DNA of 64,000 bases from a bacterium (GCA_028713675.1 JAQTNV010000010.1:12369-76368), one strand, 5' to 3'; counted from the first letter of the stretch, positions 1-64,000 are shown. Notes: generated from the sequence alone by a model not told the origin. Numbers and translations: made by a program.

Positions 1-51
1 CGGGGGAATCCAGTCTTTCCGCTCTGGATTCCCGCTTTCGCGGGAATGACA
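1..51. repeat. GAAA-loop hairpin repeat (GTCATTCC-YGC-GAAAGC-RGG-GAATCCAG; translates as WIPAFAGMT), extended form
   Basis: The sequence gggggaatccagtctttccgctctggattcccgctttcgcgggaatgac is nearly identical to 34921-34971. Confidence 0.7.
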
Positions 52-75
52 GCTCAAAAAAATCTAAAGCCGTTG

Positions 76-1344
76 CTATTTTCTTCCGGCTTTCTTTTTC
101 CGGACCGGTTTTCGGGAGGCGGCCTTTTTCGCGGCCTTCCCGGTTTTCTTGACCTTGTCCTTAACCTGTTTTCTGGCCTGGACCGGCTTCGGCTTGGCTT
201 CGTCCCGGCCGAGGACATAGACGATATTCGACTGGAGGCAGAAGCCGCTGGTCGCGTGCACCAGCCCCCGGCGGATATCCTTTTTAATCTGGTATTCCCC
301 CGCCTGCCCGGTGAGCTGGCGGGCCGCCTCGACCATCCGGAGCAGGCCGGCCACGAAAATGGGGTTCCCGCAGAGCGCCCCTCCCGAGGCGTTCACGGGA
401 TAAGCTCCGTCCAGGTTCGCGATTCCTTTCTCCACCAGCTTCCGCCCTTCCCCGGCCTCGGCCAGCCCCAGTCCCTCGCAAATCATCAGTTCGGAAAAGG
501 AGAACGGCTCGTAGACCTCGGCGAAATCGGTTTCCTTCCGCGGGTTCCTGATCCCGGCCTGGGCGTAAGCCATCCGGGCCGCCCGGGCCAGCGATTCCGG
601 CCGGGCCAGGTCCCGGTGCCCCAGGTAATAAAGGTCATGGTTGTAGCCGACCCCCTCGATCCAGACCGGATTGGGGGTGATTTTCCGGGCCAGATCGCCG
701 TTGGCCAGGATCAGGGCGCAGGCCGCTTCCGAACGCGGGGAAGCGTCGGCCAGTTTGATCGGGGAAGCCAGTACCGGCGATTTCAAAACCTCCGCTTCGC
801 TGATCGGGATCCGGACCTGGGTGTTGGGGTTTCTCACCCCGTTGGCCCGGTTTTTCACCACCACCTTGGCCGCCGGCCGCTCGTCCAGGTTATACCGGGA
901 AAGGTAACTGTTCGCCTGGAGGGCGAAGGCCGAGACCATCTCCACCCCCAGGGGGCGGAGCAGGAAGGGATCGGTCATCATCCAGGAATAAAACTGGGGA
1001 GGGGTGTCCACGCGTCCGTGAGCCACGATCAGCGCCGTCTTATGGTGGCCGGTGAGGAGCCGGAGGTAGGCGTAAAGGGCGGCATAGGCGCCGTCCTCCT
1101 CCACCTTGGATTCCTCCTTCATGAATCCCCCCATGGACTCGACCACGAAAACGTTGGAGATGCTGGCCCCGTCCATCGTGTCGCAGCTCGCGCTGATGAC
1201 CGTGTCGATGTCCCCGATGGAGAGCCCGCTTTTGTCCAGGGCCGCTTGCACGGTCCGGCCGATCATTTCGGTTTTGTGGATCCGTTCGTCCCGCTCCACG
1301 ATTGGGGATTGGGCCCAGCCGACAATCGCCGCTTTCCGTTCCAC
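76..1344 (-). CDS. Thiolase-like protein of the SCP-x / non-specific lipid-transfer type, with an unusual Lys/Ala/Pro-rich basic C-terminal tail
   Basis: The translation carries thiolase motifs (AAIVGWAQSPI near the N-terminus, NASGGALCGNPIFVAGL near the C-terminus). The likely start is a GTG at 1344, preceded by AGGAGG 6 nt upstream. The ORF track extends to 1530, but that stretch covers intergenic repeats. The C-terminal 40 aa read KPKPVQARKQVKDKVKKTGKAAKKAASRKPVRKKKAGRK. Confidence 0.75.
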   Translation of the reverse strand: MERKAAIVGWAQSPIVERDERIHKTEMIGRTVQAALDKSGLSIGDIDTVISASCDTMDGASISNVFVVESMGGFMKEESKVEEDGAYAALYAYLRLLTGHHKTALIVAHGRVDTPPQFYSWMMTDPFLLRPLGVEMVSAFALQANSYLSRYNLDERPAAKVVVKNRANGVRNPNTQVRIPISEAEVLKSPVLASPIKLADASPRSEAACALILANGDLARKITPNPVWIEGVGYNHDLYYLGHRDLARPESLARAARMAYAQAGIRNPRKETDFAEVYEPFSFSELMICEGLGLAEAGEGRKLVEKGIANLDGAYPVNASGGALCGNPIFVAGLLRMVEAARQLTGQAGEYQIKKDIRRGLVHATSGFCLQSNIVYVLGRDEAKPKPVQARKQVKDKVKKTGKAAKKAASRKPVRKKKAGRK

Positions 1345-1613
1345 CTGCTTCCTCCTTCTGATAAAGCCTTGATATAAATGTTTGGAGTTGGGTGATAGGT
1401 GTTGGGTGCTGGGTAATAAAACTAAAATGCCACCCGAACTTATACCCCGAACTCTAAAAATTTCCTTCTCAGTTCCCTGCTCCGGGCCCTTTGCCTTCGG
1501 CTCCGACTGGGCAGGACGCCTGGATTCCAACCACCCAGCTACCCAACCACCGCGCAGCCAGGCTGCGGCTATCGTTTTGCCCTATGCCCTCTGCCCTATG
1601 CTCTATACTCTTT

Positions 1614-2762
1614 TTAGTACGTGCTGATGATATCCCGGGCGATGATCATGCGCTGGATCTCGCTCGCTCCTTCGCCGATCTCGCCGAGCTTGGCGTCGCG
1701 ATAGAGCCGCTCCACCTTGTATTCCTTCATATAGCCGTAGCCGCCGTGGATCTGGACCGCGTCCGAGGCGATCCGGGTACAGGTCTCGGAGGCGTAAAGC
1801 TTGGCCACCGAGGCCAGGGTGCTGTCGGGCGTGCCCTGGTCAAGCTTCCAGGCCGCCTCGTGAATAACCAGCCGGGCACCGTCCGTGGCCACCTTCATCT
1901 CGGCGATCTTGAAGTGGATCTCCTGGAAACTGGCGAGGGTCTTGCCGAAAGCCTGCCGCTCGGTCGCGTATTTGATCGACTCCTCCAGGCAGGCCTCCGC
2001 TATCCCCAGCGAAAACACCGCCATCCCGATCCGGGCCGGGACCAGGCACTGCATGCACTGGATGAAACCGCCGCCCTCGCTGCCGACCAGGTTGGCGGCC
2101 GGGATCTCGCAGTCCTCGAAAATGAGCTCGGAGGTGGGGCTCCCGCGGACCCCCAGCTTGTCCAGGGGCTTGCCCACGGAAAAGCCCTTGGTCCCCTTCT
2201 CCACCACGAAGCAGGAGATGCCCGAATAGCCCTTGCTGGGATCGGTCTTGGCGTAGATAATCGCGATGTCCGCGATCGGCCCGTTGGTAATGAACATCTT
2301 GGTGCCGTTCAAAACATACTTGTCGCCCTTCCGGATCGCCTTGGTCTTGAGGGACTGGACGTCAGACCCGGCATGGGGCTCAGTCATCGCCATGCACCCG
2401 AACTTGGTTCCCTTGATCAGATCGGGGAGATATTTTTTCTTCTGGGCGTCGGTGCCGAAAATCAGGATCGGGATCCCGGCCAAGCCGACGCTCGCCCCCG
2501 AGGAAAGGTAGGTGGCCGCGCAGGCCTTGGAGAGCTCCTCGCCGGCGACGGAGGTGGTCACGCAGCCCAGGTTGGTCCCGCCGAACTCCTTGGGCATCCC
2601 CATCCCCATGTAGCCGTACTTGCCCAGGGCCTTGATGTTATCGGTGCAGAAGATCATCTCCCGGTCGAGCTTCTCGGCCTTGGGCGCGATCTCCTTTTCG
2701 CAGAAATCCCGAAAACTTCTTTGAATCTCTATCTGTTCCGGAGTGTATGTATAGTCAAACAT
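1614..2762 (-). CDS. Acyl-CoA dehydrogenase
   Basis: 382 aa. ACAD family hallmarks are present: [19 protein letters not shown], a C-terminal QIHGGYGY, and [17 protein letters not shown]. Confidence 0.9.
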
Positions 2763-2789
2763 GTTTCCTCCCTTTTCTTTCCTGCCGTC

Positions 2790-4235: not shown

Positions 4236-6659
4236 ATGAATCAGATGCCCAAAAAATTACACCGGCTCGCGTTTTTCCTGATTTTCCTCCTGTCCTGTTC
4301 CCGGGACGGGGTCTTGACCTTGACCACTCCCGTCCCCCTGAATGAATCCATCCCCGGGGATGAAATCCGTTTCGGAAAAATCATTTCGGATTCGGAACTG
4401 GTCCCCGGTCCCGGGGCCACCGGCTGGTTCGGTGATTTCAAGCTTTACAATTCCCGGGTCGGTTTCATCCTCCAGGGCAACCTGACCCCCCCCGACCGGC
4501 GCCTGCTTCCCGGAACCATTATCGACGCGGGCTGGGCCGAACCGGGGGCGCTTCCCTCCGGAGATCTTCTCTTCGGCCTTACCCCCTGGCTCGAGGATTC
4601 ACCGGCGCGCGTGGGAAAAATCGAATTCCAGGATGGGGCGGGTCAGGGCCGGGCCACGGTTACCGGAAGGCTGGAACCGCAAAATCTTGATTACCAGGCC
4701 ACTTATGCCCTTTACCCCGGCGATGACCCGCGGGGCCGGGGCCTTCTAATCAAAACCACCATCTCGAACCCCGGCTCTTCCCCCCAGACCGTCAATCCGG
4801 GAGACTGGATTTCGTTCGGGGGAAAACTCGGCCTGCAGGTTCTGGATTTTCCCGGCGGGCACAAACTTCTGGCCGCGATCGGGCCGCGAATATCCTATCT
4901 TTATGTACCTACCGGGCTGGACATCAGCTCCCTGGAAATGACCCCGGGCGGGGCCGGGATCCATTTCCCGGAAACAACCCTGGCCCCCGGGGAATCCTGG
5001 ACCGGCACCCGCTGGCTTCTGATCAGCCGCCATGGGCTTCTGGAAGCGAATCCCATCCTTCCCAACCTCCTCGGTTTCTCCCCGGGAACCCTGCGGGTCC
5101 TGATCCCGAACGTGCAGGCGCAGGAAGATCTTTCCGTGAAAATATTCAGCCCCCCGGATGTTCTGAATGGCATCTGGGCTCCCGACCAGGAGGGAAATCT
5201 TTCGGCCCAGGTTCCGGCCGGTTCCTACCGGGTTAAAATCGAAAGCCCGGGCCTGGAGGATTATTATTTCCCGTCTCCTGTTACCGTCTCCGCCGGCGCC
5301 GAAAAATCGATCACGGTCACGCTCCCGGAGCCTTCCCGGGCGCGGTTCCAGATCTGGGAGGAAAACAACGGCGGCTATGCCACCGGCCCTTCCCCCGCGA
5401 AATTATGTTTCCAGAACCTGCGCCGGCCGGAAATCGTCGTGCGCGCCGTCACCGCGACCGGTTCGGGCGAAACCCTTCTGCCGCCGGGGATTTACGAGGT
5501 TTCCGCGAGCCGGGGGACGGAATACTCCCTGAAGCGGTTCCGATTTGGGCTCCAGCCGGGGGAAACCTTTGCCTTTCACGCTGCCCTCAGGAAGGTTCTG
5601 AATAACGATGGCTACTACTCCTTCGACCCCCGCCAGCGCACCGGCCGCTCCGCCCAGGGCAATCTGGGCCGCGAGGACTGGCTGAAAGACAACCTGGCGG
5701 AGGGCCTTTCCCTCTTGACCCCGGTTGATATCAACGCCGTCACCCAGATCTCTTCCTCCGATTTCCTTCCGGGTTATTCCGCTTCGGCCTCTTCCCTGAC
5801 CGGCCTGGAGATCCTCCCGGAAACCGGGCCTCCGTTTCTGCTCTTCCCCGCCGTTTTCGACCGTCTCTCCGGCTGGGGCGGGGCTCCCCTGGCGGACGAT
5901 CCGGAAACCATCTGGGAGATTTACCCGGCTTACTCCCGGCCCCGTCTCCTGGGGGCCACTCCCGAGTCCCTGGCATACCTGGTTCCTTCCTCCGATCCCG
6001 TCACCGCGCCGGTCCGGTTGGAATTCCCTCTCGATTTCGTCGAGATTTCCGATGCCGCGCCTGACCTCAACCGCTGGTTCGCCCTGCTCAATTCAGGATA
6101 CCTGGTCACCGCCGTCGGCGGATCCGGAGCTGGCAGTGTCGAAGAAGGGATCGGATTCCCCCGGACATTGATCCCCCGGGAAACCGGCTCATCCGATCCG
6201 GAAACCGATCTGGTGAACGCGATCAGGACCCGGAAGGCCCTGGTCTCGGCCGGGCCGCGCCTCCGGATGCGGGCGGATTATTACGGCTTCGATTCCGCCG
6301 CCTTTATTTCCGACACCAGCGGCGATATCGATCTTGAGATCGAGCTGGAAAGCCCGGTCTGGACCCCGGTTTCCGAGCTGATCATCTTCGGCAACGGGCA
6401 GCCCCTGCAAACCATCCCCGTGGATTTTTCCGCCGCTGTCAGCTTGGGAGGCCATCGTTTCTCCCAGCATTACTACCTCAACCTGCCGCTCGCAAAGGAC
6501 ACCTGGTTTGTCGCCCTGGTCCGGGGACAGGATTCGCTCGCGCCCGTTTACCCCGGTCATCCTTTCGCTTTCACCAACCCGATTTGGGTGGACGCTGACG
6601 GGGTGGACCGGGACGGCGACGGGCGTCTTTTCGACGCCCTGAACTCTCCTCTCCCATAG
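4236..6659 (+). CDS. Large hypothetical lipoprotein (about 808 aa) containing carboxypeptidase-regulatory-like beta-sandwich segments
   Basis: Signal peptide with lipobox (MNQMPKKLHRLAFFLIFLLSCS). No recognisable catalytic motif. The ORF track starts at a TTG at 4209. An ATG at 4236 or 4245 is more plausible as the start. Confidence 0.6.
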   Translation: MNQMPKKLHRLAFFLIFLLSCSRDGVLTLTTPVPLNESIPGDEIRFGKIISDSELVPGPGATGWFGDFKLYNSRVGFILQGNLTPPDRRLLPGTIIDAGWAEPGALPSGDLLFGLTPWLEDSPARVGKIEFQDGAGQGRATVTGRLEPQNLDYQATYALYPGDDPRGRGLLIKTTISNPGSSPQTVNPGDWISFGGKLGLQVLDFPGGHKLLAAIGPRISYLYVPTGLDISSLEMTPGGAGIHFPETTLAPGESWTGTRWLLISRHGLLEANPILPNLLGFSPGTLRVLIPNVQAQEDLSVKIFSPPDVLNGIWAPDQEGNLSAQVPAGSYRVKIESPGLEDYYFPSPVTVSAGAEKSITVTLPEPSRARFQIWEENNGGYATGPSPAKLCFQNLRRPEIVVRAVTATGSGETLLPPGIYEVSASRGTEYSLKRFRFGLQPGETFAFHAALRKVLNNDGYYSFDPRQRTGRSAQGNLGREDWLKDNLAEGLSLLTPVDINAVTQISSSDFLPGYSASASSLTGLEILPETGPPFLLFPAVFDRLSGWGGAPLADDPETIWEIYPAYSRPRLLGATPESLAYLVPSSDPVTAPVRLEFPLDFVEISDAAPDLNRWFALLNSGYLVTAVGGSGAGSVEEGIGFPRTLIPRETGSSDPETDLVNAIRTRKALVSAGPRLRMRADYYGFDSAAFISDTSGDIDLEIELESPVWTPVSELIIFGNGQPLQTIPVDFSAAVSLGGHRFSQHYYLNLPLAKDTWFVALVRGQDSLAPVYPGHPFAFTNPIWVDADGVDRDGDGRLFDALNSPLP

Positions 6660-6700
6660 ATCATTCATTCCTCATTTTTGTCATCCCTGTTTCTTTTTTT

Positions 6701-6727
6701 GTCATCCCTGCGAAAGCAGGGATCCAG
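6701..6727. repeat. GAAA-loop hairpin repeat (variant gtcatccctgcgaaagcagggatccag)
   Basis: Preceded by a direct tttgtcatccctg duplication and followed by a G-rich hairpin cluster. Confidence 0.65.
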
Positions 6728-6734
6728 AACAATT

Positions 6735-6865
6735 TTTTCAAGATTCCCGCATCCCTCCCCTCCGGCCTGTAGGCCCTACGGGCTGGAAGCGGGGCAGTAG
6801 GCCCTGCCGGGCCGGAGGCCACATCCTCCCCCTCCCCGCCTTTGACGGAGCAAGCTAAGGGGGAG
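6735..6865. repeat. G/C-rich CCCTCC/GGGAGG nested hairpin cluster; similar clusters lie at 17366-17475, 24345-24455 and 46530-46590
   Basis: The motifs ccctcccctcc ... gggggaggg recur in four intergenic regions. Two of them adjoin GAATGAC-ended elements. Confidence 0.55.
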
Positions 6866-6969
6866 GGAGTAATTAATGCGTTTCTTGCCTCTCTCGCTCT
6901 CTCGCTCTCTCGCTCGTCTCGCCTTTCTATTTGCATCGGTACGATGGACTCTGATATTAGTTGATAATC

Positions 6970-8379: not shown

Positions 8380-8465
8380 GTGATTAATAGAATTATCCTT
8401 CGCTTTTCGTTAGCCCTTTTCCTTTTTTACCCTATCTCCCATCTCCAATCTTCTATCTCCCGGGA

Positions 8466-9259: not shown

Positions 9260-9513
9260 CTTAAACAACCCCCTTTTCAGAGTGATGAGACTGATTTTCC
9301 TCAATCTTAAAACAAATCACAAGTATTCAAAAGCTCAAAGGTCAAAGCTGAAAGTTCAAAGGTTAAAGCTCAACGCTCAACGGTTGAAATCTTTATTTCG
9401 GAAGCATAAAGTAAAGATATCCATTCAAGTAAAAAGTAAGAAGTGTTAACCGGAAAAACTAAATAAACCAAAGAAATCAGAAAAACTTATATTCATAAAG
9501 GAAGGAGAAAAAA

Positions 9514-9765
9514 ATGGCGGAGGAAAAAATCGGGGATGTGGAAAAATTCTTCGGCAAGATCTCGGTCGCGATGATCAAGCTCTCGGCCCCTCTCAAGGTG
9601 GGCGACACGATCAAGTTCAAGGGTCACACCACCGATGTCACCCAGACGGTTGACTCGATGCAGATGGCGAACCAAGCCATCCCGGAGGCCAAGGCGGGCG
9701 ACGACGTCGGGCTCAAGACCAAAGACAAGGTCCGGCCCGGGGACACGGTGTATAAAGTAACGTAG
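9514..9765 (+). CDS. Small EF-Tu domain-2-like beta-barrel protein (translation-elongation-factor-like protein, 83 aa)
   Basis: Strong RBS ggaaggag upstream. The GDTIKFKGHTTDVTQTV...GDDVGLK...GDTVY pattern resembles domain 2 of EF-Tu/SelB. Transcribed divergently from parA. Confidence 0.55.
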   Translation: MAEEKIGDVEKFFGKISVAMIKLSAPLKVGDTIKFKGHTTDVTQTVDSMQMANQAIPEAKAGDDVGLKTKDKVRPGDTVYKVT

Positions 9766-9918
9766 ACCGTAGGCGGTAGACGGCATACCGGGGAAAGCCA
9801 GAAGCCCTTTCTCGCGCCTTACGCCTTACCCCTCACGCCTTATGTGTGGTTTCGTTGGGCTTGAGAAAAGAAGCCCCTGCCGATTAAATTTTCTCATATA
9901 ATTCATTCGTTATCATTT

Positions 9919-9983
9919 GTCATTCCTGCGAAAGCAGGAATCCAGGAAAAATATCTGGATCCCGCATCAAGTGCGGGATGACG
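9919..9983. repeat. GAAA-loop hairpin repeat plus an adjacent inverted partner (ctggatcccgcatcaagtgcgggatgacg)
   Basis: The sequence gtcattcctgcgaaagcaggaatccag is followed by a second hairpin that ends in gatgacg. Confidence 0.65.
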
Positions 9984-10002
9984 TAATTGCGGAAAATCGG
10001 TT

Positions 10003-13886: not shown

Positions 13887-13894
13887 TCATTGAT

Positions 13895-14080
13895 AAGGTG
13901 ATAGGTGTTGGGTCATGGGTCATAGGTAAAATCAAAACCTAAAACCCAACACCCAAAACCTAATACCTAAAAATAAAAAACCCGAGGTTCCCCGGGTTTT
14001 AAGCTTCTTAACTTTTGGTTTTTCGCCTCTTGCTTCTTGCCTTTTGCCTATAACCTATGACCTATCACCTATGACCTATG
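13895..14080. repeat. Inverted pair of TAGGT-unit heptamer repeats (gtgataggtgttgggtcatgggtcataggt ... acctatgacctatcacctatgacctatgacc) flanking a terminator
   Basis: A related motif (gggtgataggtgttgggtgctgggt) occurs at 1392-1418. Confidence 0.6.
13971..14003. terminator. Bidirectional intrinsic terminator between the convergent 12699..13886 gene and mutS2
   Basis: Hairpin aaaaaacccgaggttccccgggtttt, with an A-run and a T-run on either side. Confidence 0.6.
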
Positions 14081-14082
14081 AC

Positions 14083-17274: not shown

Positions 17275-17507
17275 GTTAATATGAGGAAATATAAGTAGTT
17301 AGAACCTATCGGATAACTTGCGGGAAAAGACAAATTGGGACTTGAACAGGAAAACCTCCGGAATGACCCCCTCTCCCCCACCCTCCCCCTTCCCGCCTCT
17401 GGCGGGACAAGCCGAGGGGGGCCTGCCCGAGCCGGCCGCTCGGGTCGGCCAGGGAGGGAAAGGGTGAGGGTGAAAATAATTATCTGAACAGTTATGATTA
17501 AAACGCC

Positions 17508-24340: not shown

Positions 24341-24574
24341 ATCATAAATAATCCTCCCCTCCCTGGAGGGGAGGGGACTGAGGGGAGGGTGAACGATGCG
24401 TTTTCTCACCCTCTCCTTCATCCTCCCCCCTCAAGGGGGAGGAAAAATTTACAAATAAAAATACGACAAAGGACGGACAAGACGAGAAAAAAAGGCGGGG
24501 ATAAACCCCGCCCCTACAAAAACAATTTATTTAATAACGTAGGGGAGCCCCTGGTGGGCTCCCTCAATTTAATA

Positions 24575-24631: not shown

Positions 24632-24697
24632 GCTTTTAACCTTGAACCGTGAACACTGAACCTCTTAACCTCTGATTTCCACCTTTCTCGCTACTAT

Positions 24698-27370: not shown

Positions 27371-27559
27371 TTTCTTGTCAAGACTTTTCTGGCCAGCAAC
27401 GGAAAAACAACCCCCTGCCGGGATCATTTTCGGCCTGCCCTTGGCGGGAGACATCTATTCTTCCTTTATTGTCATCCCCGTCCCGCATATGAGTGCGGGA
27501 CAAACTTCAGCGGGGGTCCCAAAAATAATGCAAATTAAATTTTTCCTTATTATTAATTT

Positions 27560-27587
27560 CTGGATTCCTGCTTCCGCAGGAATGACG
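27560..27587. repeat. GAAA-loop hairpin repeat family (ctggattcctgcttccgcaggaatgacg)
   Basis: Located in the nrdJ-gcvH intergenic region. Generates the spurious peptide FWIPASAGMT in shadow ORF 27363..27623. Confidence 0.65.
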
Positions 27588-27605
27588 TCTATAAAAAGGA
27601 ATCCT

Positions 27606-29024: not shown

Positions 29025-29058
29025 AGTTTCGAGTTTCTAGTTTAGGGTTTCGGGTTTG
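29025..29058 (+). repeat. Stop-codon-adjacent GTTTCGA-heptamer element (sense orientation, 3' of tolQ)
   Basis: The sequence agtttcgagtttctagtttagggtttcgggtttg starts the nucleotide after the tolQ TAA. Confidence 0.65.
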
Positions 29059-30502: not shown

Positions 30503-30757
30503 AAGAAGGTGTTACATGCAGCAATTTAAGCCTTCGATATTACAGGAAAAAATGAAAAGCTCTAACATCATCAAACCCTTTGGAGTACATTAGCTTGCTG
30601 ATGCGATGCGTCCCGCCAGTGGCGGGAGGCACTCTAAAAATACTATTATGGATTGCAATAGTTTTCTGATACTCTGCAAAAGCAAGCTTTTGCGCTCCAT
30701 AAAGATATATCTGATAAGAATATTTGTAACACCCTCTAAAAACCAAAGGAGGAGATA

Positions 30758-33109: not shown

Positions 33110-33115
33110 AAAGAA

Positions 33116-33152
33116 ACCAGTTTCTAGTTTCGAGTTTCGGGTTTCGAGTTTG
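33116..33152 (+). repeat. Stop-codon-adjacent GTTTCGA-heptamer element (3' of pal)
   Basis: The sequence ccagtttctagtttcgagtttcgggtttcgagtttg begins 7 nt after the pal TAG. Confidence 0.65.
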
Positions 33153-34138: not shown

Positions 34139-34309
34139 GGTAGGTGGTAGGTAGCAGGTGGTAGGTGGTAGGTGGTAGGTGGTAGGTGGTAGGTGGTAGG
34201 TGATAGGTGGTAGGTAGTAGGTAGTAGGTAGTAGGTAGTAGGTAGTAGGTAGTAGGTAGTAGGTAGTAGGTAGTAGGTAGTAGGTAGTAGGTAGTAGGTA
34301 GTAGGTAGT
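34139..34309. repeat. Long tandem heptanucleotide array (GGTAGGT / AGTAGGT, about 24 units)
   Basis: About 170 bp of perfect 7-nt periodicity immediately after cpoB, bordering the AT-rich islet. Confidence 0.9.
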
Positions 34310-34356
34310 AGACCCCCGGAAACCGATTTAACTCTTTTTTAAAATTCCATTTAAAT

Positions 34357-34842
34357 TTAATGACCCAGTGAAAATCCTAATATTTTGCCATTAGTACGAT
34401 CTATAAATACAAAACCATTAAACGCACCTGGAATAGGAGGAAATACTTTTAATTGAAAATAAATTGCCCAATAATTCTTCCCTCCTAAATGCATTTCTTG
34501 AATATTTGGTGAAAGCCAAATCCTTGGATTTCTATATACTTCGTCGTTCCATCTAGTATTATTGTCATCTGCTTTTATTCCAACTGTTTCTTTACCCCAA
34601 GATGGATCGTTTGTCTTTTTTATCAAACCAGCTCTAGCAATTTTTATCGCTTCCGACAAAGTGATGTTCGTTGTTTTCCCGGAAGGATAAGAAAATTCTA
34701 TCGATTTTATAGGAGAAGGATTCTTCTCCGCCTTTGAAGCTTCAGGAGTATGACTGGGAGAGCAATTCAAACATACCAGGAAGGTACAAACAACCCATAG
34801 TGAACAAACAACTCGCATAGAGGTATTATAAATCATTTTCAA
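34357..34842 (-). CDS. Hypothetical small secreted protein encoded in an AT-rich islet
   Basis: The ORF lies entirely in a roughly 530-bp segment of markedly lower GC (visually about 35-40%) than its surroundings. N-terminal hydrophobic Cys-rich signal (VVCSLWVVCTFLVCLNCS). Confidence 0.5.
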   Translation of the reverse strand: MKMIYNTSMRVVCSLWVVCTFLVCLNCSPSHTPEASKAEKNPSPIKSIEFSYPSGKTTNITLSEAIKIARAGLIKKTNDPSWGKETVGIKADDNNTRWNDEVYRNPRIWLSPNIQEMHLGGKNYWAIYFQLKVFPPIPGAFNGFVFIDRTNGKILGFSLGH

Positions 34843-34920
34843 CTTGATAATTCCTCGCGGCTGCGGGGTTGCCTTATTCCGTCATTCCGGGCTTGACTAA
34901 GCCTGCCCCGGACCTGATCC

Positions 34921-34971
34921 GGGGGAATCCAGTATTTTTTCCGCCTGGATTCCTGCTTCCGCAGGAATGAC
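34921..34971. repeat. GAAA-loop hairpin repeat, extended form
   Basis: The sequence gggggaatccagtattttttccgcctggattcctgcttccgcaggaatgac flanks the AT-rich islet. Confidence 0.7.
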
Positions 34972-35043
34972 AACAGACAAAATAAAGGTTTAATAAATTA
35001 GATACCCCGCGGCTTTCCACGGGAAGATTAATTCGGATGTGGA

Positions 35044-36489: not shown

Positions 36490-36645
36490 AGTTCAAAGTC
36501 CAAAGGTCAAAGGTCAAAGTTCGAAGGAAAGATATAAAACAGCATCAGCAAGCTGATGCGCTCCAAAAAAGAAAACCCTGAATTCCGGCTTCCTCCTGCG
36601 CCGAGGCTTCGGAGGACAAGTCCGCCGGAATGACGATATTTATTT

Positions 36646-36680
36646 TTTACTGCTTACTGCCTACTCCTTACTGTTTACTG
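36646..36680. repeat. Tandem heptamer array (TTACTGC / CTACTCC units)
   Basis: Sequence ttactgcttactgcctactccttactgtttactgg. Confidence 0.7.
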
Positions 36681-36716
36681 GGAGCGAAGCTCCCTGCTGC
36701 CTACTTCTTACTGACA

Positions 36717-36741
36717 GCGCAGCCTAAAGGCTGCGGCTACC
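36717..36741 (-). repeat. REP palindrome with compensatory stem changes
   Basis: The sequence gcgcagcctaaaggctgcggctacc has the same architecture and CTACC end as the other copies. The stem is GCAGCCT/AGGCTGC rather than CAGGCT/AGCCTG. Confidence 0.6.
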
Positions 36742-36763: not shown

Positions 36764-36806
36764 TTCAATCGTCAATCGTAAATCGTCAATCGTCAATCGT
36801 CAATTT
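36764..36806. repeat. Tandem heptamer array (AATCGTC units); a second copy lies at 36891-36922
   Basis: The sequence caatcgtcaatcgtaaatcgtcaatcgtcaatcgtcaatt is repeated about 85 bp downstream. Confidence 0.7.
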
Positions 36807-36920
36807 GCGCCTTGCGCTCTGCTTTTCGCAAGGCTAAAGCCTTGCCCTACATTTGCCCTATGCCCTTTGCGATCACAAATCAGGTTTTCACTCGTCAATC
36901 GTAAATCGTCAATCGTCAAT

Positions 36921-37856: not shown

Positions 37857-37909
37857 TTAATCGAGATTGCTTCGTCGCTTGCGCTTCTCGCAATGACAAT
37901 TCTTCCAGA

Positions 37910-37980
37910 CTGGATTCCCGCTTTCGCGGGAATGACGGAATTAGCATGGATACTCCCGCCTTGGGCGGTACGGGAATGAC
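37910..37980. repeat. GAAA-loop hairpin repeat (ctggattcccgctttcgcgggaatgacgg) followed by a second gggaatgac end
   Basis: Lies between mtnP and ndk. Generates the spurious peptide WIPAFAGMT at the C-terminus of shadow ORF 36630..37979. Confidence 0.65.
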
Positions 37981-37987
37981 TTTCGAG

Positions 37988-38024
37988 AAAACAACCCGAA
38001 ACCAGAAACCCGAAACTCGGAACT
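37988..38024 (-). repeat. Stop-codon-adjacent GTTTCGA-heptamer element (3' of ndk, sense on the minus strand)
   Basis: The reverse complement reads agttccgagtttcgggtttctggtttcgggttgttt. Lies 15 nt 3' of the ndk stop. Confidence 0.65.
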
Positions 38025-41769: not shown

Positions 41770-41805
41770 CAAACTATAAACTCGAAACCAGAAACTCGAA
41801 ACTTT
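41770..41805 (-). repeat. Stop-codon-adjacent GTTTCGA-heptamer element (3' of sucD, sense on the minus strand)
   Basis: The reverse complement reads aaagtttcgagtttctggtttcgagtttatagtttg. Ends 1 nt from the sucD stop. Confidence 0.65.
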
Positions 41806-46482: not shown

Positions 46483-46598
46483 TCAACCCCCAAATTTCTA
46501 TTTTCGAATTTCGAAATCCTATACCCTACCCCCTCTCCCTTCCTTCCCCCTCGACAGGGGAGGGCTTGGGTGGGGGTGAATTCGTTTATTTGTTTTCC

Positions 46599-47389: not shown

Positions 47390-47411
47390 AGTCTTACCTC
47401 TCTTCGTATTA

Positions 47412-47446
47412 TTGATAGCCGGTTATCGGTAACCGGCGACCGGTTA
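47412..47446 (-). repeat. Intercistronic ACCGGTT-unit element (abutting the fumB stop, before sdhC)
   Basis: Sequence agccggttatcggtaaccggcgaccggttac. Confidence 0.6.
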
Positions 47447-48040: not shown

Positions 48041-48892
48041 TTAAATGACCGCCTCTTTATGCCGGTGCGAATGGCAATTGATGTTGATCGCCACCGGGAG
48101 GCTCGCGATGTGGCAATTCGTCATTTCGATATGCACCGCCAGGGCGGTGGTCCGTCCTCCCAGCCCGGCCGGCCCGATCCCCAGGCGGTTCACCTTTTCC
48201 AGGATCTCCTGTTCCAGGTTGGCCAGCTCGAGACTCGGGTTGGGGTTGCCGAGCGGCCGCAGGAGCGACCGCTTGGCCAGGATGGCCGACTGTTCCAGGT
48301 TGCCGCCGATCCCGACCCCGACGACAATCGGGGGACATGGATTGGAGCCGGATTCCCGGACCCGGTCCACCACCAGTTTCTTCACGCCTTCCACCCCGGC
48401 CGCCGGGGGCAGGAGCTGCACCCGGCTCATGTTCTCGCTGCCTCCCCCCTTGGGGGCGCAGACGATATGGATCTTTTCTCCCGGAACGATCCGGACATGC
48501 AGGATGCAAGGGGTATTATCCCCGGTATTCTTCCGGGTGAAGCAATCGCAGACCGACTTGCGGAGAAAGCCCTCCTTGTAAGCCTGCCGCACGCCCTCGT
48601 TGACCGCCTCTTCCAAACTTCCCCCCACCAGGTGCACGTCCTGGCCCAGGTCGATGAAAACGACCGCGAGGCCGCAATCCTGGCATAGCGGGTAGACTCC
48701 CTCCCGGGCAATCTTGGCGTTCTCGATGATTTCATCCAGGATCGCCACCCCGATGGGGGACTCTTCCGCTTTCCGGGCCCGGTCCAGGGCCTCGATCACA
48801 TCCTCGCCCAGGTTGTAGCAGGCCGATTGGAAAAGCTCCCGGAGCTTCGCAGTTATTTCTTTTACTTGGATTTCTCTCATTTTGTTCGTCAC
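48041..48892 (-). CDS. fumA: Class I (Fe-S) fumarate hydratase, alpha subunit (N-terminal domain)
   Basis: Fe-S hydro-lyase alpha motifs (CQDCGLAVVF, ...CHSHRH). GTG start at 48892. Confidence 0.85.
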   Translation of the reverse strand: MTNKMREIQVKEITAKLRELFQSACYNLGEDVIEALDRARKAEESPIGVAILDEIIENAKIAREGVYPLCQDCGLAVVFIDLGQDVHLVGGSLEEAVNEGVRQAYKEGFLRKSVCDCFTRKNTGDNTPCILHVRIVPGEKIHIVCAPKGGGSENMSRVQLLPPAAGVEGVKKLVVDRVRESGSNPCPPIVVGVGIGGNLEQSAILAKRSLLRPLGNPNPSLELANLEQEILEKVNRLGIGPAGLGGRTTALAVHIEMTNCHIASLPVAININCHSHRHKEAVI

Positions 48893-48919
48893 CGGTTTCC
48901 GGTTACCGGCTACCGGTTA
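48893..48919 (-). repeat. Intercistronic ACCGGTT-unit element that fills the entire mdh-stop to fumA-start spacer
   Basis: Sequence cggtttccggttaccggctaccggtta. Confidence 0.6.
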
Positions 48920-49858
48920 CTAGAATCCTTTGCCTTTCATCTCCTGGACGGTTTTCTTGACCGAATCCAGCGACTTCTGGAAGGCCGCCTTTTCCTCTGC
49001 GTTGAGGTCGATCTCCACCACCTTCTGCACGCCCGTGGCGCCGAGAACGGCGGGAACGCCCATGAAATAACCGCCGACGCCGTATTCCTTCTCGCACCAG
49101 ACCGAGCAGGGCATGACGCGCCGCTGGTCATTGAGGATGGCCTCGGCCATCGTCACCGTGGCGCTCCCGGGGGAGAAGTAGGCGCTCCCGGTTTTGAGCA
49201 AAGCCACGATCTCGCCCCCGGCCTTCCGGGTCCGGTCAACCATGGCCGCAAGCCGGTCCTTCGGGATCAGGTTTTCCACCGGCACTCCGTTCACCTGGGT
49301 CCGCCGGACGAGCGGGACCATGTCGTCGCCGTGACCGCCGAGCACCAGGGTCTGCACGTCGCGCGGGCTGACCTTGAGCTCCATCGCGATGAAACAGGCG
49401 AAGCGAGCCGAGTCGAGCACCCCGGCCGAGCCGATCACGCGGTTCTTGGGGAAGCCGGTGACCGAGGCGGTCAGGTAAACCATCGAATCCAGCGGGTTCG
49501 AAACCACCAGGACAATCGAATTGGGGGCGAATTTCTTGATCGCCTCCGCGACCGGTTTCACGATCTTGATGTTGGCGTCGAGCAGGTCCTCCCGGGTCAT
49601 CCCCGGCTTCCGGGCCATCCCGGCGGTGACGATGACCAGGTCGGACCCGGCGATATCGTCATACTTGGTCGTGCCCATGATATCCACATCGATCCCCGAG
49701 AACGAGCGGCATTCCATCAGGTCGAGGGCCTTGCCCTGCGGCATCCCCTCCACGATATCGGTGATGACCACATCACCCAGGTTCTTGACCGCCGCCACAT
49801 GGGCGCAGGTCTGCCCCACGTTCCCGCCGCCGATTACCGCAATTTTCTTTCTAGCCAT
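48920..49858 (-). CDS. mdh: Malate dehydrogenase (LDH-like MDH)
   Basis: Motifs KIAVIGGGNVGQT, VSNPLD and GGHGDDMVP. Confidence 0.9.
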   Translation of the reverse strand: MARKKIAVIGGGNVGQTCAHVAAVKNLGDVVITDIVEGMPQGKALDLMECRSFSGIDVDIMGTTKYDDIAGSDLVIVTAGMARKPGMTREDLLDANIKIVKPVAEAIKKFAPNSIVLVVSNPLDSMVYLTASVTGFPKNRVIGSAGVLDSARFACFIAMELKVSPRDVQTLVLGGHGDDMVPLVRRTQVNGVPVENLIPKDRLAAMVDRTRKAGGEIVALLKTGSAYFSPGSATVTMAEAILNDQRRVMPCSVWCEKEYGVGGYFMGVPAVLGATGVQKVVEIDLNAEEKAAFQKSLDSVKKTVQEMKGKGF

Positions 49859-52295: not shown

Positions 52296-52372
52296 TGAGA
52301 TTCAGGGTTTAAGGCTCAAGACTCAAAGTTCAAAGAGAGTCATTTTACCTTTGAGCTTTGACCTTTCACCTG
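52296..52372. repeat. CAAAGGTCAAAG / CTTTGACCTTTG imperfect inverted repeat; other copies lie at 9330-9395, 29570-29665 and 36485-36530
   Basis: AAGGTCA-type heptamer units in direct and inverted arrangement, lying in 5' regions of hypE, parA/9514, tolA and gatB. Confidence 0.55.
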
Positions 52373-53675: not shown

Positions 53676-53718
53676 TTTAAATCAACTCCAGTTATTCATA
53701 ATATATTTCCTTACCACT

Positions 53719-53775
53719 GGTAGCCGCAGGCTTTTCGATCAGATCCCGAGGTATTGTGGCCGAGGGAAGCCTGCG
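53719..53775 (+). repeat. Long-loop REP variant, copy 3 of 3 (3' flank of the RAYT)
   Basis: Sequence ggtagccgcaggcttttcgatcagatcccgaggtattgtggccgagggaagcctgcg. Confidence 0.75.
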
Positions 53776-53782
53776 TACATTT

Positions 53783-54253
53783 TCACCATTCTTCCAAATT
53801 ATAAACGGTCGATCCCTTAAAAGGATACCCCTTACTATCCGCCGCCAAACCCTTTCGAACAGGATTATTTAAGATGTATTTTACCTGCTTGAGAATATCT
53901 TCATCTTTTCTTAGGACATGATCATAAAAATCTTTTTGCCATTTAATGCCGGGATGATTTCGCCCCAACCAGTAACCGGTTTTTTGCTTGAAGTTTTTGA
54001 TAAATTTTAATAGATCAGATTCATCGGACTTACCCTCCACTAAAACATGAAAATGATCCGGCATAAAAAGAAAAACATGGGCTTCGCATTCTTCTTTCTT
54101 TAAAATATTGATTAACAGGTCAGAGAAAATCCGAGTAATATTTTCCTGAGCAAATAGAGGATACCTCTCTGCAATACAAACCGTAAAAGTAATTATTATT
54201 TTTCCTCGATATAACTTCGTTGATAAACGGTGTCTGCGTTCTCGGATTTCCAT
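53783..54253 (-). CDS. REP-associated tyrosine transposase (RAYT; IS200/IS605-like Y1 HuH transposase)
   Basis: 156 aa. HuH motif FMPDHFHVLV. Catalytic Tyr / NP motif KYILNNPVRKGL. N-terminal YRGKIIITFTV. Flanked on both sides by GTAG-type REP palindromes. Confidence 0.8.
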   Translation of the reverse strand: MEIRERRHRLSTKLYRGKIIITFTVCIAERYPLFAQENITRIFSDLLINILKKEECEAHVFLFMPDHFHVLVEGKSDESDLLKFIKNFKQKTGYWLGRNHPGIKWQKDFYDHVLRKDEDILKQVKYILNNPVRKGLAADSKGYPFKGSTVYNLEEW

Positions 54254-54261
54254 TCAAAACC

Positions 54262-54512
54262 CGCAACCTGCCTGTCCTGAGCTTGTCGAAGGGAAGGTTG
54301 CGCCTACCAAACATTCAAAATCTTATTCTTGTATCGGTAGCCACAGGCTTCAGCCTGCGCAATTCCGCAACCTAAAGGTTGCGCCTACCAAACATTCAAA
54401 ATCTTATTCTTGTATCGGTAGCCGCATGCTTCAGCCTGCGCTATTCCGCAACCTAAAGGTTGCGCCTACCAGAATGTAATTATTTTTACGCAGGCTAAAG
54501 CCTGCAGCTACC
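54262..54512. repeat. BIME-like cluster of six REPs in alternating orientation, including an approximately 84-bp direct duplication
   Basis: REPs at 54262-54308 (-, long loop), 54336-54360 (+), 54365-54389 (-, stem GCAACCT/AGGTTGC), 54417-54441 (+), 54446-54470 (-) and 54488-54512 (-). Each has a GGTAG or CTACC terminus. Confidence 0.75.
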
Positions 54513-54535
54513 TTTTGATGACTTAGGACTTCGGA

Positions 54536-61284: not shown

Positions 61285-61321
61285 TTCCTTTTCTCCTTTC
61301 TAAAGGATTGGAATCCGGCCC

Positions 61322-62463: not shown

Positions 62464-62490
62464 TGACATATGTCAAGATTGACATATAAG
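62464..62490. promoter_or_regulatory. Perfect 12-bp palindrome TGACATATGTCA plus a direct TGACATAT repeat in the modE-like / hydrogenase small-subunit intergenic region
   Basis: The sequence tgacatatgtcaagattgacatataag lies about 150 bp upstream of the hynA start. It is a candidate operator for the hydrogenase operon. Confidence 0.35.
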
Positions 62491-62596
62491 TTAAAAATAA
62501 CAACCCCCCTGCAACCTGGTTTTTCCGAACAACCAGAATGTATGAATTTAACCGGGCCGGGAGGCGGAACCCGGGAAACCCGCCGCGATCGCCGTC

Positions 62597-63004
62597 TTAT
62601 TCCTTCTTGCGGGACACTCCCTTTTTAACGGAAGGCTTTTCTTCTGAGGCGTACTTGTTTATGTGTGCTTGAAAAATATTTTTTGCTTCTTTCAAAGCGA
62701 CGGCTTCCACGGTATCAAACCATTTCAGGAACCTGTCTCTCATTTCTTTTCCTTCCTGGGTCAGCTGGTATCCTTCGCGCTTTTCTCCCCGGCGCTTGAG
62801 CAGTTTAACCCCCGTGGCTTTTTGGGTGGCTTTGATCTTTCCCCAGGCGGCCCGGTACGACATCCCCAGTTTGTCCGCGGCTTTCCGCAGAGACCCGAGT
62901 TCTTCGATGGCGTTAAGCAATTGGACGCGCCCGATGCCGAAATAAATGCCCTGGTTATCTTCCAGCCAGAGGTGCAGCCGCAAAGTGAGGTTTTTCCGAT
63001 CCAT
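62597..63004 (-). CDS. ModE-like winged-HTH transcriptional regulator (N-terminal-domain-only type)
   Basis: HTH motif GSLRKAADKLGMSYRAAWGKI, typical of the ModE N-terminal domain. 135 aa. Lies upstream of the hydrogenase structural genes. Confidence 0.55.
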   Translation of the reverse strand: MDRKNLTLRLHLWLEDNQGIYFGIGRVQLLNAIEELGSLRKAADKLGMSYRAAWGKIKATQKATGVKLLKRRGEKREGYQLTQEGKEMRDRFLKWFDTVEAVALKEAKNIFQAHINKYASEEKPSVKKGVSRKKE

Positions 63005-63220
63005 CTTTGCTCCTTCTATATTTTTTGCCCGATAATTTTCCGCCGGTTCAAGTAAAGAAGCATCCAGATTATATGTTAGGAATAATATGCAAGCAAAGAA
63101 ACGACCACGATCAACTTTGCTTTAATGACAGGTCGGGAGAAGATTCGCTACCGAAAATTAAAGGGGCGGCCCCAACGAGCCGCCCCTTGTATATATTCGC
63201 GATCGGGTAAAAACCGATTC

Positions 63221-64000
63221 TTATTTATGGCAGGCCAGGCAGACCCCGGCTTTGTTCTGGCTCAGGTTGCTCTCCCATCCTTTGGGATGTGGGCTCACCC
63301 CGCCCGCGACGCCGCCGATCTGATGGCACTGGATGCAGTTGGAACTCATGCCCTGGTCGTGACAGGCCGCGCACTTGAGGATATCCCTCCGGGCGTCCCG
63401 GCCATGATCGTTCTGCCATCCCGCCGGATGAGGATTGGCGGGTGAATTGGAATAACCCCGGGCCACTCCCTCGCGCGCGTGACACGCGTTACAGCTGGAT
63501 AACCCGTGGCATTGCAGGCAGAGGCTCTGGTCCGTCCGGGCATCGATGGAATGCTGGGTCCGATAATCTCCCCGGTGGATGAATTGTCTTTCGAGCGCTT
63601 CGGGGTATTTTACGCTCGGTTTTAAAACCTCCTTCTTCGAATGGCAGTCCGAGCAGAAGGCCTGGTCGTGGCACTGCCCGCAGACCTCCACCCCGACTCC
63701 CTTCAAAGCCGATTCCCGGTGTTCCTTCAGGTAATTGCCCTTATGGGAAAACTTGGTGATCGGTTTGAGCTTCATCTGCTGCAGGTCCGGGTGGCATTTG
63801 GAACACTGGAGGTCGGTGAACATCTGGGCGTGGCAGGCCTGGCACTCTTGATGGCCCGGAAGCGTGAAGCTGTCCCGGGTCTTGCTGATGTCTTTGCGCT
63901 GATGACAGGCCTGGCACTCCGCTTTGGACGCTTCCGTATGCAGTTTGTGGGAGAAATTCATTTCCAGTTTGTCGATTTTCACCTGAAGCGGTTTCTGGGG
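63221..64000 (-). CDS. Multiheme cytochrome c (10 or more CxxCH motifs); 5' end runs off the window
   Basis: Ten CxxCH motifs in 253 aa. No stop codon between 63982 and the window edge and no signal peptide is seen, so the N-terminus lies outside the window. Confidence 0.8.
   Translation of the reverse strand, partial: PQKPLQVKIDKLEMNFSHKLHTEASKAECQACHQRKDISKTRDSFTLPGHQECQACHAQMFTDLQCSKCHPDLQQMKLKPITKFSHKGNYLKEHRESALKGVGVEVCGQCHDQAFCSDCHSKKEVLKPSVKYPEALERQFIHRGDYRTQHSIDARTDQSLCLQCHGLSSCNACHAREGVARGYSNSPANPHPAGWQNDHGRDARRDILKCAACHDQGMSSNCIQCHQIGGVAGGVSPHPKGWESNLSQNKAGVCLACHK

Follow-up and report, generated by a model that had tools for sequence, protein, structure and literature searches.

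Results

Tandem heptamers in the intergenic spacers

We analyzed a 64-kb window of a bacterial contig (64,000 nt, one strand; GCA_028713675.1, JAQTNV010000010.1:12369-76368) that carries tricarboxylic acid (TCA) cycle genes, the tol-pal genes, gatB, mutS2, hypD, hypE and an IS200-like Y1 transposase gene. The spacers between these genes are crowded with tandem arrays of 7-nt units (heptamers), which are the subject of this study. The window's GatB matched that of named relatives at ~60% identity at best, and these relatives were scattered over several phyla (Desulfobacterota/Deltaproteobacteria, Nitrospirota/Nitrospirae, Deferribacteres), which indicates that the host is a poorly sampled lineage. 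The window's GatB and MutS2 were 100% identical to the NCBI proteins MDD5223292.1 and MDD5223276.1, which share a 76,789-bp contig of a metagenome-assembled genome. Related loci from metagenomes, whose GatB sequences were 93, 87, 80, 73, 72 and 67% identical to that of the window, added ~60 kb; we refer to five of them as L081 (93%), L082 (87%), L089 (80%), L086 (73%) and L087 (72%).

Tandem repeats were called across the window with Tandem Repeats Finder (TRF, score >=30), and the background for the counts was 30 dinucleotide-preserving shuffles. TRF was run identically on a control set of 80 unrelated bacterial loci (1.32 Mb); these came from a GatB scan of a genome collection in which the closest among the matches listed had 57% identity, and they served as controls only. 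TRF called 93 arrays in total, of which 31 had period 7 and seven had period 21, where the shuffles gave 1.53 and 0, respectively. Periods other than 7 and 21 were merely 2-5x above the shuffles. The density of period-7 arrays was 0.48/kb in the window versus 0.058/kb in the control loci, a difference of ~8x. An independent self-match detector found 14 period-7 arrays of at least four units, and 0-4 arrays for each of the other periods from 4 to 12. Autocorrelation of the intergenic DNA peaked at lags 7 (0.351), 14 (0.334), 21 (0.304) and 28 (0.286) over a baseline of ~0.26, and coding DNA showed the 3-base codon periodicity only. Arrays of period 7, 14 or 21 occupied 989 of the 7,291 intergenic bases (13.6%) versus 0.46% of the coding bases. 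These results confirmed the abundance of heptamer tandems that a first-pass annotation of the window had reported.

A typical array consisted of 4-6 imperfect units (68-95% matches by TRF), and at least ten different heptamers were used in the window. Seven pairs of arrays had an identical unit in common, against a chance estimate of ~0.3. All families named in the annotation were recovered: GGTAGGT (34140-34311, 24.6 copies), GTTTCGA (at 29025, 33119, 37993 and 41778), AAGGTCA/CAAAGGT (at 9330, 36485 and 52316-52371), AATCGTC (at 36765 and 36888), TTACTGC (at 36647), ACCGGTT (at 44736 and 48891) and ATAGGGC/TAGGTCA (at 1578, 24266, 13909 and 14047). The further statement that almost every spacer longer than 100 bp contains a repeat was too strong for heptamers, since TRF detected a heptamer array in 13 of 27 spacers. 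The arrays are contiguous direct repeats without a palindrome. CRISPR loci, which have repeats of 23-50 nt and unique spacers, were excluded because the units are contiguous 7-mers. A search of the window against Rfam gave 0 matches at gathering score. The arrays are listed below.

1379..1414, minus strand: CACCCAA-type array, 5.1 units, in the 5' end of open reading frame (ORF) 76-1530 and probably upstream of its true start; inverted partner of GGTGGTTGGGTAGCTGGGTGG at 1531-1550
1578..1606, minus strand: (AUAGGGC) x4.1, 7 nt past the acyl-CoA dehydrogenase stop, with an adjoining repetitive extragenic palindromic (REP) hairpin
8434..8461, minus strand: (GGGAGAU) x4, 30 nt past the stop of a parA-like gene, abutting a REP hairpin
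9328..9385, minus strand: (CTTTGAN) x7, sense, ending 25 nt before the parA-like start
9762..9783, plus strand: (GUAGACG) x3.1, overlapping the stop of ORF 9514-9765
9815..9842, plus strand: C-rich (CGCCTTA) x4, apparent inverted partner of the array at 9762
13887..13930, plus strand: UAGGUGA/UGGGUCA array beginning at the stop of a tetratricopeptide repeat gene; inverted partner of 14047-14086
13934..13972, plus strand: (AAAACCT) x5.6, adjoining a bidirectional terminator hairpin
14012..14049, minus strand: (GCAAAAG/GCAAGAG) x5.3, 3' of mutS2, kept in the related contig L211
14047..14086, minus strand: (AUAGGUC) x5.7, its first unit being the mutS2 stop codon, with an orthologous array in L211
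24266..24280, plus strand: (AUAGGGC) x2.1, 38 nt past an aminotransferase stop
24638..24675, minus strand: UUCAAGG/UUCAGUG-type array x5, 22 nt past the ribonucleotide reductase stop, with an adjoining REP hairpin
29025..29057, plus strand: (AGUUUCG) x4.7, 0 nt past the tolQ stop; junction of 0 nt in L082
29560..29662, plus strand: TTCAAGG / CTTGAAC-type inverted pair filling the tolR-tolA spacer; junction of 0 nt in L082
33119..33151, plus strand: (AGUUUCG) x4.7, 9 nt past the pal stop, followed by a GTCATTCC hairpin element; same unit at the orthologous post-pal site in L081
34140..34311, plus strand: two homogeneous blocks, (GGTAGGT) followed by (AGTAGGT), with 24.6 units in all, 13 nt past the cpoB stop; nearly perfect (95% matches) and missing from L081 and L082
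36485..36526, minus strand: (CUUUGAC/A/G) x6, ending 2 nt before the gatB ATG, which lacks a Shine-Dalgarno (SD) sequence
36647..36720, minus strand: (CAGUAAG) array split by a small hairpin, GGGAGCTTCGCTCCC, and followed by a REP hairpin
36765..36804, minus strand: (AUUGACG) x5.7
36888..36920, minus strand: (AUUGACG) x4.7, 0 nt past the pnp stop
37993..38023, minus strand: (GUUUCGG/GUUUCUG) x3.4, 22 nt past the ndk stop, followed by a GTCATTCC element; orthologous array in L082/L084
40120..40160, minus strand: period-21 (3 x 7) array in the korA-korB spacer
41777..41803, minus strand: (AGUUUCG) x3.7, 3 nt past the sucD stop, missing from L082
44690..44769, minus strand: GUAACCG/GGUAGCA array plus GGTGGCTAGGTAGCTTGGTGG, past the sdhA stop, both kept in L082
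46493..46515, minus strand: (UUCGAAA) x3.3, 10 nt before the sdhA start, with an adjoining CCCTCC hairpin
47390..47443, minus strand: CCGGTNN-type heptamer run filling its spacer, found by eye and under the TRF threshold
48891..48920, minus strand: (GUAACCG) x4.3, occupying the mdh-fumarase spacer completely and reaching into the mdh stop
52301..52335, minus strand: (CUUUGAN)-type array ending ~8 nt before the hypE ATG, without SD sequence
52342..52371, minus strand: (AGGUCAA) x4.1, coding for the last residues and the stop of hypD

Placement and orientation relative to genes

Arrays were crowded against gene ends. The mean distance from an array to a gene end was 30 nt, versus 53 nt under random placement within its own spacer (Fisher combined p = 2e-4), a preference that is partly trivial in that insertion into very short ancestral spacers would produce it; for six arrays the nearest stop or start codon was at most 3 nt away. 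The units also fell into two positional classes, with UAGG, GGUCAAA and RGUUUCK past stop codons and CUUUGAN before start codons.

The RGTTTCK unit was in sense orientation after the stop codon at all four of its loci, two on the plus strand (tolQ, pal) and two on the minus strand (ndk, sucD). GC skew did not change sign across the window, which we take to mean that the window is a single replichore. Because the unit is nevertheless sense on both strands, array orientation follows the direction of transcription and not that of replication. On the mRNA strand, G exceeded C in 16 of the 18 stop-nearest arrays (p = 0.0013), a set that comprised every TRF array with a stop nearest and involved no hand-picking; the two exceptions were second arrays in their spacer and apparent inverted partners. 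We also compared complementarity to the anti-Shine-Dalgarno (anti-SD) tail of 16S rRNA for 18 stop-proximal arrays (TRF calls and some added by hand). The sense strand equaled or exceeded the antisense strand in 18/18 (mean -6.6 versus -1.7 kcal/mol), although this measure largely restates the G-richness of stop-proximal arrays. C-richness of arrays before start codons was unsupported (two C-rich versus five G-rich).

Since 7 is coprime to 3, a unit that includes a stop triplet closes all three reading frames. A trend in this direction was weak: the sense strand closed more frames in 12 arrays and fewer in 4, with 6 ties (p ~0.08). Closing of frames by stop-bearing units is a possible tolerance filter. 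At hypD the reading frame enters the (AGGTCAA) array for ~10 codons (52340-52371) and the array supplies the stop codon, the Pfam match ending at residue 356 of 372. The stop codons of mutS2, mdh and ORF 9514-9765 likewise lie inside or overlap array units.

Leader arrays and unit composition

CTTTGAN arrays ended 2 nt before the start of gatB, ~8 nt before hypE, 25 nt before the parA-like gene and 27 nt before tolA, and were sense in all four cases. None of these four genes had an SD core, which was present at 24 of the 53 called starts. A CTTTGAN array also touches an SD-less gatB ATG in L081, L082, L212 and L213, and a different unit, GAAACTC, occupies the same place in the gatB leader of L089 (80%), again without SD. 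The gatB spacers of L086, L087 and L090 are ordinary short ones with SD-like sequence. At least four species retain the leader array. Where Gln- or Asn-tRNA is made through GatB, the protein is normally essential, so the array before this gene must at least permit efficient initiation. Folding predictions for an unstructured leader were mixed, with the gatB array unpaired and the hypD/hypE spacer and the L082 pnp-gatB spacer folding into long hairpins.

Units had a fixed core and one or two variable positions. Among 32 CTTTGAN units, positions 3-4 were nearly invariant (one change) and position 7 was A, C or G at near-equal frequency and never T. Among 29 RGTTTCK units, GTTT was almost invariant, position 1 was A or G and position 7 was G or T. 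The gatB leaders of L081 and L082 differed by substitutions at the wobble position. A fixed core with wobble is what a recognized core motif would give, and also what would result if whole units drawn from a pool of variants were lost and duplicated.

Comparison with related loci

The gene order sdh-suc-kor-ndk-pnp-gatB-cpoB-pal-tolB was maintained in all relatives. Period-7 arrays within the block sdhB..tolB (16 genes) were distributed as follows.

Window, 13.9 kb: 11 period-7 arrays
L082 (GatB 87%), 13.1 kb: 2 period-7 arrays
L086 (GatB 73%), 11.9 kb: 0 period-7 arrays
L087 (GatB 72%), 11.9 kb: 0 period-7 arrays

Most operon junctions in L086 and L087 were 4-20 nt long with SD-like sequence, and in L082 the tolQ|tolR and tolR|tolA junctions were 0 nt long, with the stop codon directly against the start codon. 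At these junctions the window and L081 carried array-rich inserts of 87-187 nt precisely between stop and start. The inserts of the window and L081 had nothing alignable between them, whereas the flanking protein ends were nearly identical. The ancestral operons were compact, with spacers of 0-20 nt and SD sites, and new DNA emerged exactly between stop and start codons with a content that differs in sister species. Because arrays are absent, few or many in relatives of graded distance, they can be dated, and they are recent in the lineage.

Arrays were found at orthologous sites in independent assemblies (ENA, JGI, Logan), namely before gatB and after ndk, sdhA, pal and mutS2; the loci concerned were L081, L082-85, L089 and L211. 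After mutS2 there were ~5.5 TAGGTCA-type units in the window versus ~4 in L211, which had an additional (CGACCGC) array downstream of mutS2. Most arrays were not kept between species at 87-93% GatB identity. In contrast, no indels were present in 18 kb among L082-L085, four conspecific consensus contigs that were 99.5-99.9% identical, and the mosaic contigs L212/L213, also consensus assemblies, showed one 1-nt gap in 9.7 kb. We concluded that the arrays change in whole-unit steps and, from species to species, are lost or replaced, but that they are stable within species.

The contigs L212/L213 were 99.4-99.5% identical to L082 downstream of gatB and 86-90% identical across gatB, which suggests a recombination boundary near this gene. 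By eye, the pnp-gatB spacer with its arrays looks identical in L212, L213 and L082.

Hairpin elements and other repeats

The annotation had also placed CCCTCC/GGGAGG hairpins in four intergenic regions. Three were called by the repeat tool and the fourth (~46530-46585) was seen by eye. These hairpins and the other structured elements of the window are as follows.

6752..6868: CCCTCC/GGGAGG nested hairpin, called by the repeat tool
17369..17473: CCCTCC/GGGAGG nested hairpin, called by the repeat tool, with a related one at the orthologous L211 site
24353..24443: CCCTCC/GGGAGG nested hairpin, called by the repeat tool
46530..46585: CCCTCC/GGGAGG hairpin, by eye, missed by the repeat tool
1-75, 6700-6730, 9955-10000, 27480-27600, 34880-34990 and 37870-37990: sites of the GTCATTCC-GCGGGAATCCAG hairpin family
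53783-54253, minus strand: IS200-like Y1 transposase gene of the REP-associated tyrosine transposase (RAYT) type, flanked by long REP hairpins with GGTAGCC heads

The features that define REPs, namely an imperfect palindrome, a GTAG head and a RAYT flanked by them, were found in separate REP hairpins and not in the heptamer arrays. REP hairpins adjoined arrays at 4/6 REP sites outside the RAYT cassette. REP-tail counts in the relatives were too noisy at one mismatch to serve as a test of a RAYT link. Beside the Y1 transposase gene (53676-54535), an 81-nt unit with one REP per unit is repeated 2.2 times (54294-54471). The GTCATTCC(C/T)GC-loop-GCGGGAATCCAG hairpin family, which the annotation had called GAAA hairpins, is frequent, and its members often stand back to back as palindromic pairs. 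Directly after an RGTTTCK array, two independent loci have a common T-rich linker and then a GTCATTCC...GGAATCC hairpin. In our reading of these associations, one kind of permissive DNA has accumulated both hairpin elements and arrays, some of the hairpins having inserted into arrays, and we do not read the RAYT as the maker of the arrays.

Some arrays occurred as inverted pairs. The pair 13887/14047 gave a predicted duplex of -50.6 kcal/mol (z -7.9), and the hypD array with its inverted partner, the hypE leader array, a predicted hairpin of -24 kcal/mol (z -2.2). Further inverted pairs were present in the tolR-tolA spacer and in the pnp-gatB spacer of L082. Most arrays in the window were solitary. 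A foldback spanning the spacer was rejected as a general architecture, because end-to-end complementarity was significant in just 6/28 spacers.

An AT-rich island (34312-35043; GC ~0.49 in a 2-kb window) is bordered by the 24-unit array on one side and by a palindromic GTCATTCC element on the other. It contains an orphan ORF (34357-34842, minus strand, 161 aa) with no Pfam match. This insert is missing from L081, which has a 21-nt spacer there, and other repeats stand in its place in L082. Just 18 nt long in L081, the tolB-tolA spacer has 255 nt in the window (30503-30757) and is well conserved in L082 (15239-15503). It carries GCATCAGCAAGCT-type hairpins that are found also at 36541-36562, and it may be another mobile or structured element.

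Tandem repeats distinct from the intergenic heptamers were present within genes, with 21-nt units in the pal C-terminus (32998-33118), 18/36-nt units in tolA (29921-29992) and eight copies of an 8-nt unit in a PD40-repeat protein gene (21997-22062). The sole strong non-heptamer tandem in a spacer was (CTCTCTCG) x4.1, of period 8, at 6889-6922 upstream of a flavin adenine dinucleotide (FAD)-dependent oxidoreductase gene. In L082 the korA-korB spacer (6566-6610) reads GACCAACAGTCCAAACAGTCCAGCAGACCAACAGTG, which includes CAACAGT, the unit of cyanobacterial STRR3 (see Discussion), and the period there is 8-9 nt.

Heptamers in unrelated genomes

Inverted and sometimes nested pairs of ~4.3-unit heptamer arrays also occurred in unrelated genomes (Acidobacteriota, an uncultured proteobacterium), at the following loci.

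L024 19207-20158
L070 17775-21300
L008 5451-5642
L077 724-799
L078 9892-9990

The Acidobacteriota locus L024 shares the unit AGTTTCG with the window, from which we drew no inference because an exact match is expected by chance among ~1,170 unit classes. When metagenomes were scanned for (RGTTTCK)4, at least 120 contigs matched, part of which look like telomere-type eukaryotic repeats (TTTAGGG variants). In the contigs listed, arrays beside stop codons were sense in 19 cases versus ~11 antisense (counted by hand on crude ORF calls), and other heptamer families occurred at 0.36/kb. A 12,059-nt soil metagenome contig, L162, was denser than the window, with 19 period-7 arrays that use many different units. 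The scan shows that the RGTTTCK unit is widespread and nothing more. Taken together, Acidobacteriota, the other loci and the (RGTTTCK)4 contigs indicate that heptamer richness is widespread among genomes but occurs sporadically.

Discussion

With its dense heptamer arrays this window is a clear instance, in a new and uncultured lineage, of a phenomenon that was already known. The first-pass annotation had compared them to the short tandemly repeated repetitive (STRR) sequences of cyanobacteria and held that a comparable phenomenon would be notable in an anaerobe with periplasmic hydrogenase and multiheme cytochromes. The likeness in form stood: in both systems tandem 7-nt units of several families per genome are dispersed and mostly intergenic. 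The hairpin elements within or beside arrays presumably have a cyanobacterial parallel as well. The novelty did not stand, because this class of repeat has already been described in Xanthomonas, Burkholderia, Beggiatoaceae, Bacteroidetes and Geobacter metallireducens. The present system differs from the STRRs of Calothrix and Nostoc in its host, which is no cyanobacterium (GatB relatives at ~60%, in other phyla), and in the transcription-linked orientation and gene-end crowding measured in the window. It also differs in its units; the canonical ones, which we take to be CCCCAGT, TTGGTCA (STRR2) and CAACAGT (STRR3), were not matched, the nearest being TGGGTCA, one mismatch from STRR2.

The arrays also resemble the long simple sequence repeats (SSRs) of prokaryotes. 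In the account of Mrazek (2007) given by PMC4679880 and PMC4692102, heptanucleotides outnumber every other class of long SSR in most prokaryote genomes that are rich in SSRs, and the proposed cause is that the polymerase slips over a footprint of 7 nt. The heptamers GGGAATC of Xanthomonas and GGGGAYT of Nostoc vary between close species and sometimes form inverted pairs (PMC4692102). The window shares with these (Mrazek et al. 2007; Xanthomonas, Nostoc) an intergenic excess of 7-nt repeats that, locus for locus, vary in length and sequence among close species, some inverted pairs, and several G-rich units; it differs in having many families and no one dominant G-rich unit, and among its units GGTAGGT alone had even weak quadruplex potential. 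Long SSRs are defined as runs of 1-11-nt units whose length or frequency exceeds chance for the genome in question, and such an excess was found here against both shuffles and control loci, on 64 kb of genome.

Two further systems offer close comparisons. In marine Beggiatoaceae, TAACTGA repeats end 1 nt before SD-less starts, and S1, Csp and CsrA have been suggested as binders (PMC4679880). Those arrays and ours are alike in being short (2-6 units there, 4-7 here), forward, and placed just before SD-less starts, essential genes included. In the window gatB and hypE have such a forward array within a few nt of an SD-less start, and tolA and the parA-like gene have one farther off. The window unit is CTTTGAN, however, one of at least ten families, and most window arrays lie past stop codons. 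The Gmet_H4## multicopy elements of G. metallireducens consist of four or five tandem heptamers, with paired sites associated with insertion sequences (IS) at a fixed distance (PMC2700814). They share with the window about four tandem heptamers per site, tens of copies, an anaerobic host of metal/sulfur-cycle type and some opposite-strand pairs. Unlike the window arrays, their units are GGACCGG and MTYCTGA, they are also intragenic, regulator-binding sites or RNA elements were proposed for them, and they have no comparative dating.

Our preferred reading, to which we assign a probability of roughly 0.55, is that the arrays are heptanucleotide microsatellites of the STRR or long-SSR class, recently amassed in the spacers of one lineage alongside REP, GTCATTCC and CCCTCC hairpins. 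The arrays would have grown and turned over by slipped-strand replication or unequal exchange, an origin that, like the Rho and anti-SD rationale, SD-less initiation and any regulatory role discussed below, we infer. The bias toward heptamers would be the one already proposed for bacterial DNA polymerases. Because the arrays would be transcribed inside operon mRNAs, selection would retain only unit types and orientations without harmful effect at the RNA level. Past a stop codon, a G-rich, C-poor mRNA strand would not recruit Rho and would be complementary to the anti-SD tail. Ahead of gatB, and probably of hypE and tolA too, CUUUGAN may have been turned into an unstructured leader for SD-less ribosome start. 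Several points weigh against microsatellite growth as the whole account. Slippage has no substrate at a junction of 0 nt, so whatever DNA came first must have arrived there by insertion or duplication, and no target-site duplication or donor was identified at the tolQ|tolR|tolA junctions. Identical units recur at unrelated sites above chance, the fixed core with its balanced wobble fits a recognized motif equally well, and a 64-kb window with ~60 kb of relatives is a small sample.

The arrays may instead be functional RNA elements, that is, periodic sites for an oligomeric RNA-binding protein of HutP or TRAP type or for the ribosome (S1, cold-shock proteins, anti-SD), through which post-stop and pre-start arrays would control coupling, stability or initiation in many operons. 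Oligomeric RNA-binding proteins do read repeats of the form UAG-N4 or GAG-N2-3, as HutP and TRAP do, the UAG-N4 periodicity being that of HutP. We regard this explanation as doubtful, although an orientation that follows transcription, conserved cores of 5-6 nt with one or two wobble positions, the placement of the L081/L082 gatB substitutions at wobble positions, the two positional classes and the retention of the gatB array all speak for it. Precedents exist in the Beggiatoaceae TAACTGA repeats (PMC4679880) and in Nostoc, where start-proximal heptamer repeats at recF and recO affect reporter expression (bioRxiv 10.1101/2022.06.06.494920). However, at least ten different units would require many binders, no candidate binding protein was identified within the window, the same housekeeping operons are array-free in relatives, most arrays are not conserved even at 87-93% GatB identity, and turnover of whole units can mimic a core with wobble. 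A tentative and bolder proposal, which we think has a low chance of being right, is a two-class, transcript-level code that lets the lineage inflate its spacers without losing translational coupling. G-rich, anti-SD-complementary arrays (UAGG, GGUCAAA, RGUUUCK) past stop codons would hide the spacer from Rho, hold terminating ribosomes, or both, and CUUUGAN arrays before start codons would be SD-independent landing sites for ribosomes; the code might be read by a ring-shaped RNA-binding protein with binding sites 7 nt apart. It is also unlikely, in our view, that the arrays are arms or remnants of foldback elements resembling miniature inverted-repeat transposable elements, with heptamer inverted termini, that insert and then decay to single arms. 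Such elements would account for unrelated inserts placed precisely where L082 has 0-nt junctions, for the inverted pairs at 13887/14047, hypD/hypE, tolR-tolA and L082 pnp-gatB, for the RGTTTCK, T-rich linker and GTCATTCC hairpin combination at two loci, for the pairs of ~4.3 units in Acidobacteriota and elsewhere, and for the paired sites with IS elements in G. metallireducens (PMC2700814). Against them stand the rarity of significant spacer-end complementarity, the solitary state of most arrays and a 24-unit array that looks amplified in place; target-site duplications, a transposase and alignable full-length copies were not found.

The first-pass annotation had suggested that the repeats may be linked to the resident RAYT or to a recombination or phase-variation mechanism. 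Phase variation was not supported, and a RAYT link was not established. As by-products of RAYT/REP activity (cleavage and rejoining at GTAG) or as RAYT landing pads, the arrays would explain why the Y1 transposase gene is flanked by GGTAGCC-headed REPs, why arrays abut most REP sites outside the cassette and a small hairpin splits the TTACTG array, and why several units contain GTAG or ATAG (GGTAGGT, GTAGACG, GTAGCCG). We consider this improbable, because GTAG is absent from most families (AGTTTCG, CTTTGAC, AATCGTC, TTACTGC), no palindrome is formed by the arrays, 8 kb of L081 contain arrays but no REP tail, and the adjacency is explained equally well by hairpins inserting into pre-existing arrays. 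Still less credible are contingency loci, in which copy number would switch neighboring genes at a high rate. Tandem repeats near starts are the classic arrangement for such loci, and one array is long and nearly perfect (34140-34311), but the conspecific consensus contigs had 0 indels and the two mosaic ones a single 1-nt gap, most arrays consist of 4-6 imperfect units, and the neighbors (TCA cycle genes, tol-pal, gatB and hyp) are housekeeping rather than surface or virulence genes. The annotation had also named confinement of the families to one contig as a sign of misassembly. An assembly artefact of this contig has a negligible chance of being the explanation and no point in its favor, since it is refuted by the orthologous arrays of independent assemblies (ENA, JGI, Logan).

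The origin and role of heptanucleotide repeats, the commonest long microsatellite in bacteria, have been unexplained since STRRs were described. The lineage supplies a graded comparative series, in which the same operons have none, few or many arrays, and an orientation rule tied to transcription. New details are the crowding at gene ends, the G-rich mRNA strand past stop codons, the CTTTGAN arrays at SD-less starts and the fixed core and wobble position of the units. Even if the arrays are merely tolerated junk, they would still be useful for the annotation of metagenome-assembled genomes, where they mark repeat-rich spacers, array-encoded C-termini such as that of hypD, and misplaced starts. 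In this lineage gatB, an essential gene, has exchanged its SD site for an array, and tolerance, Rho avoidance and SD-less initiation become testable with simple reporters.

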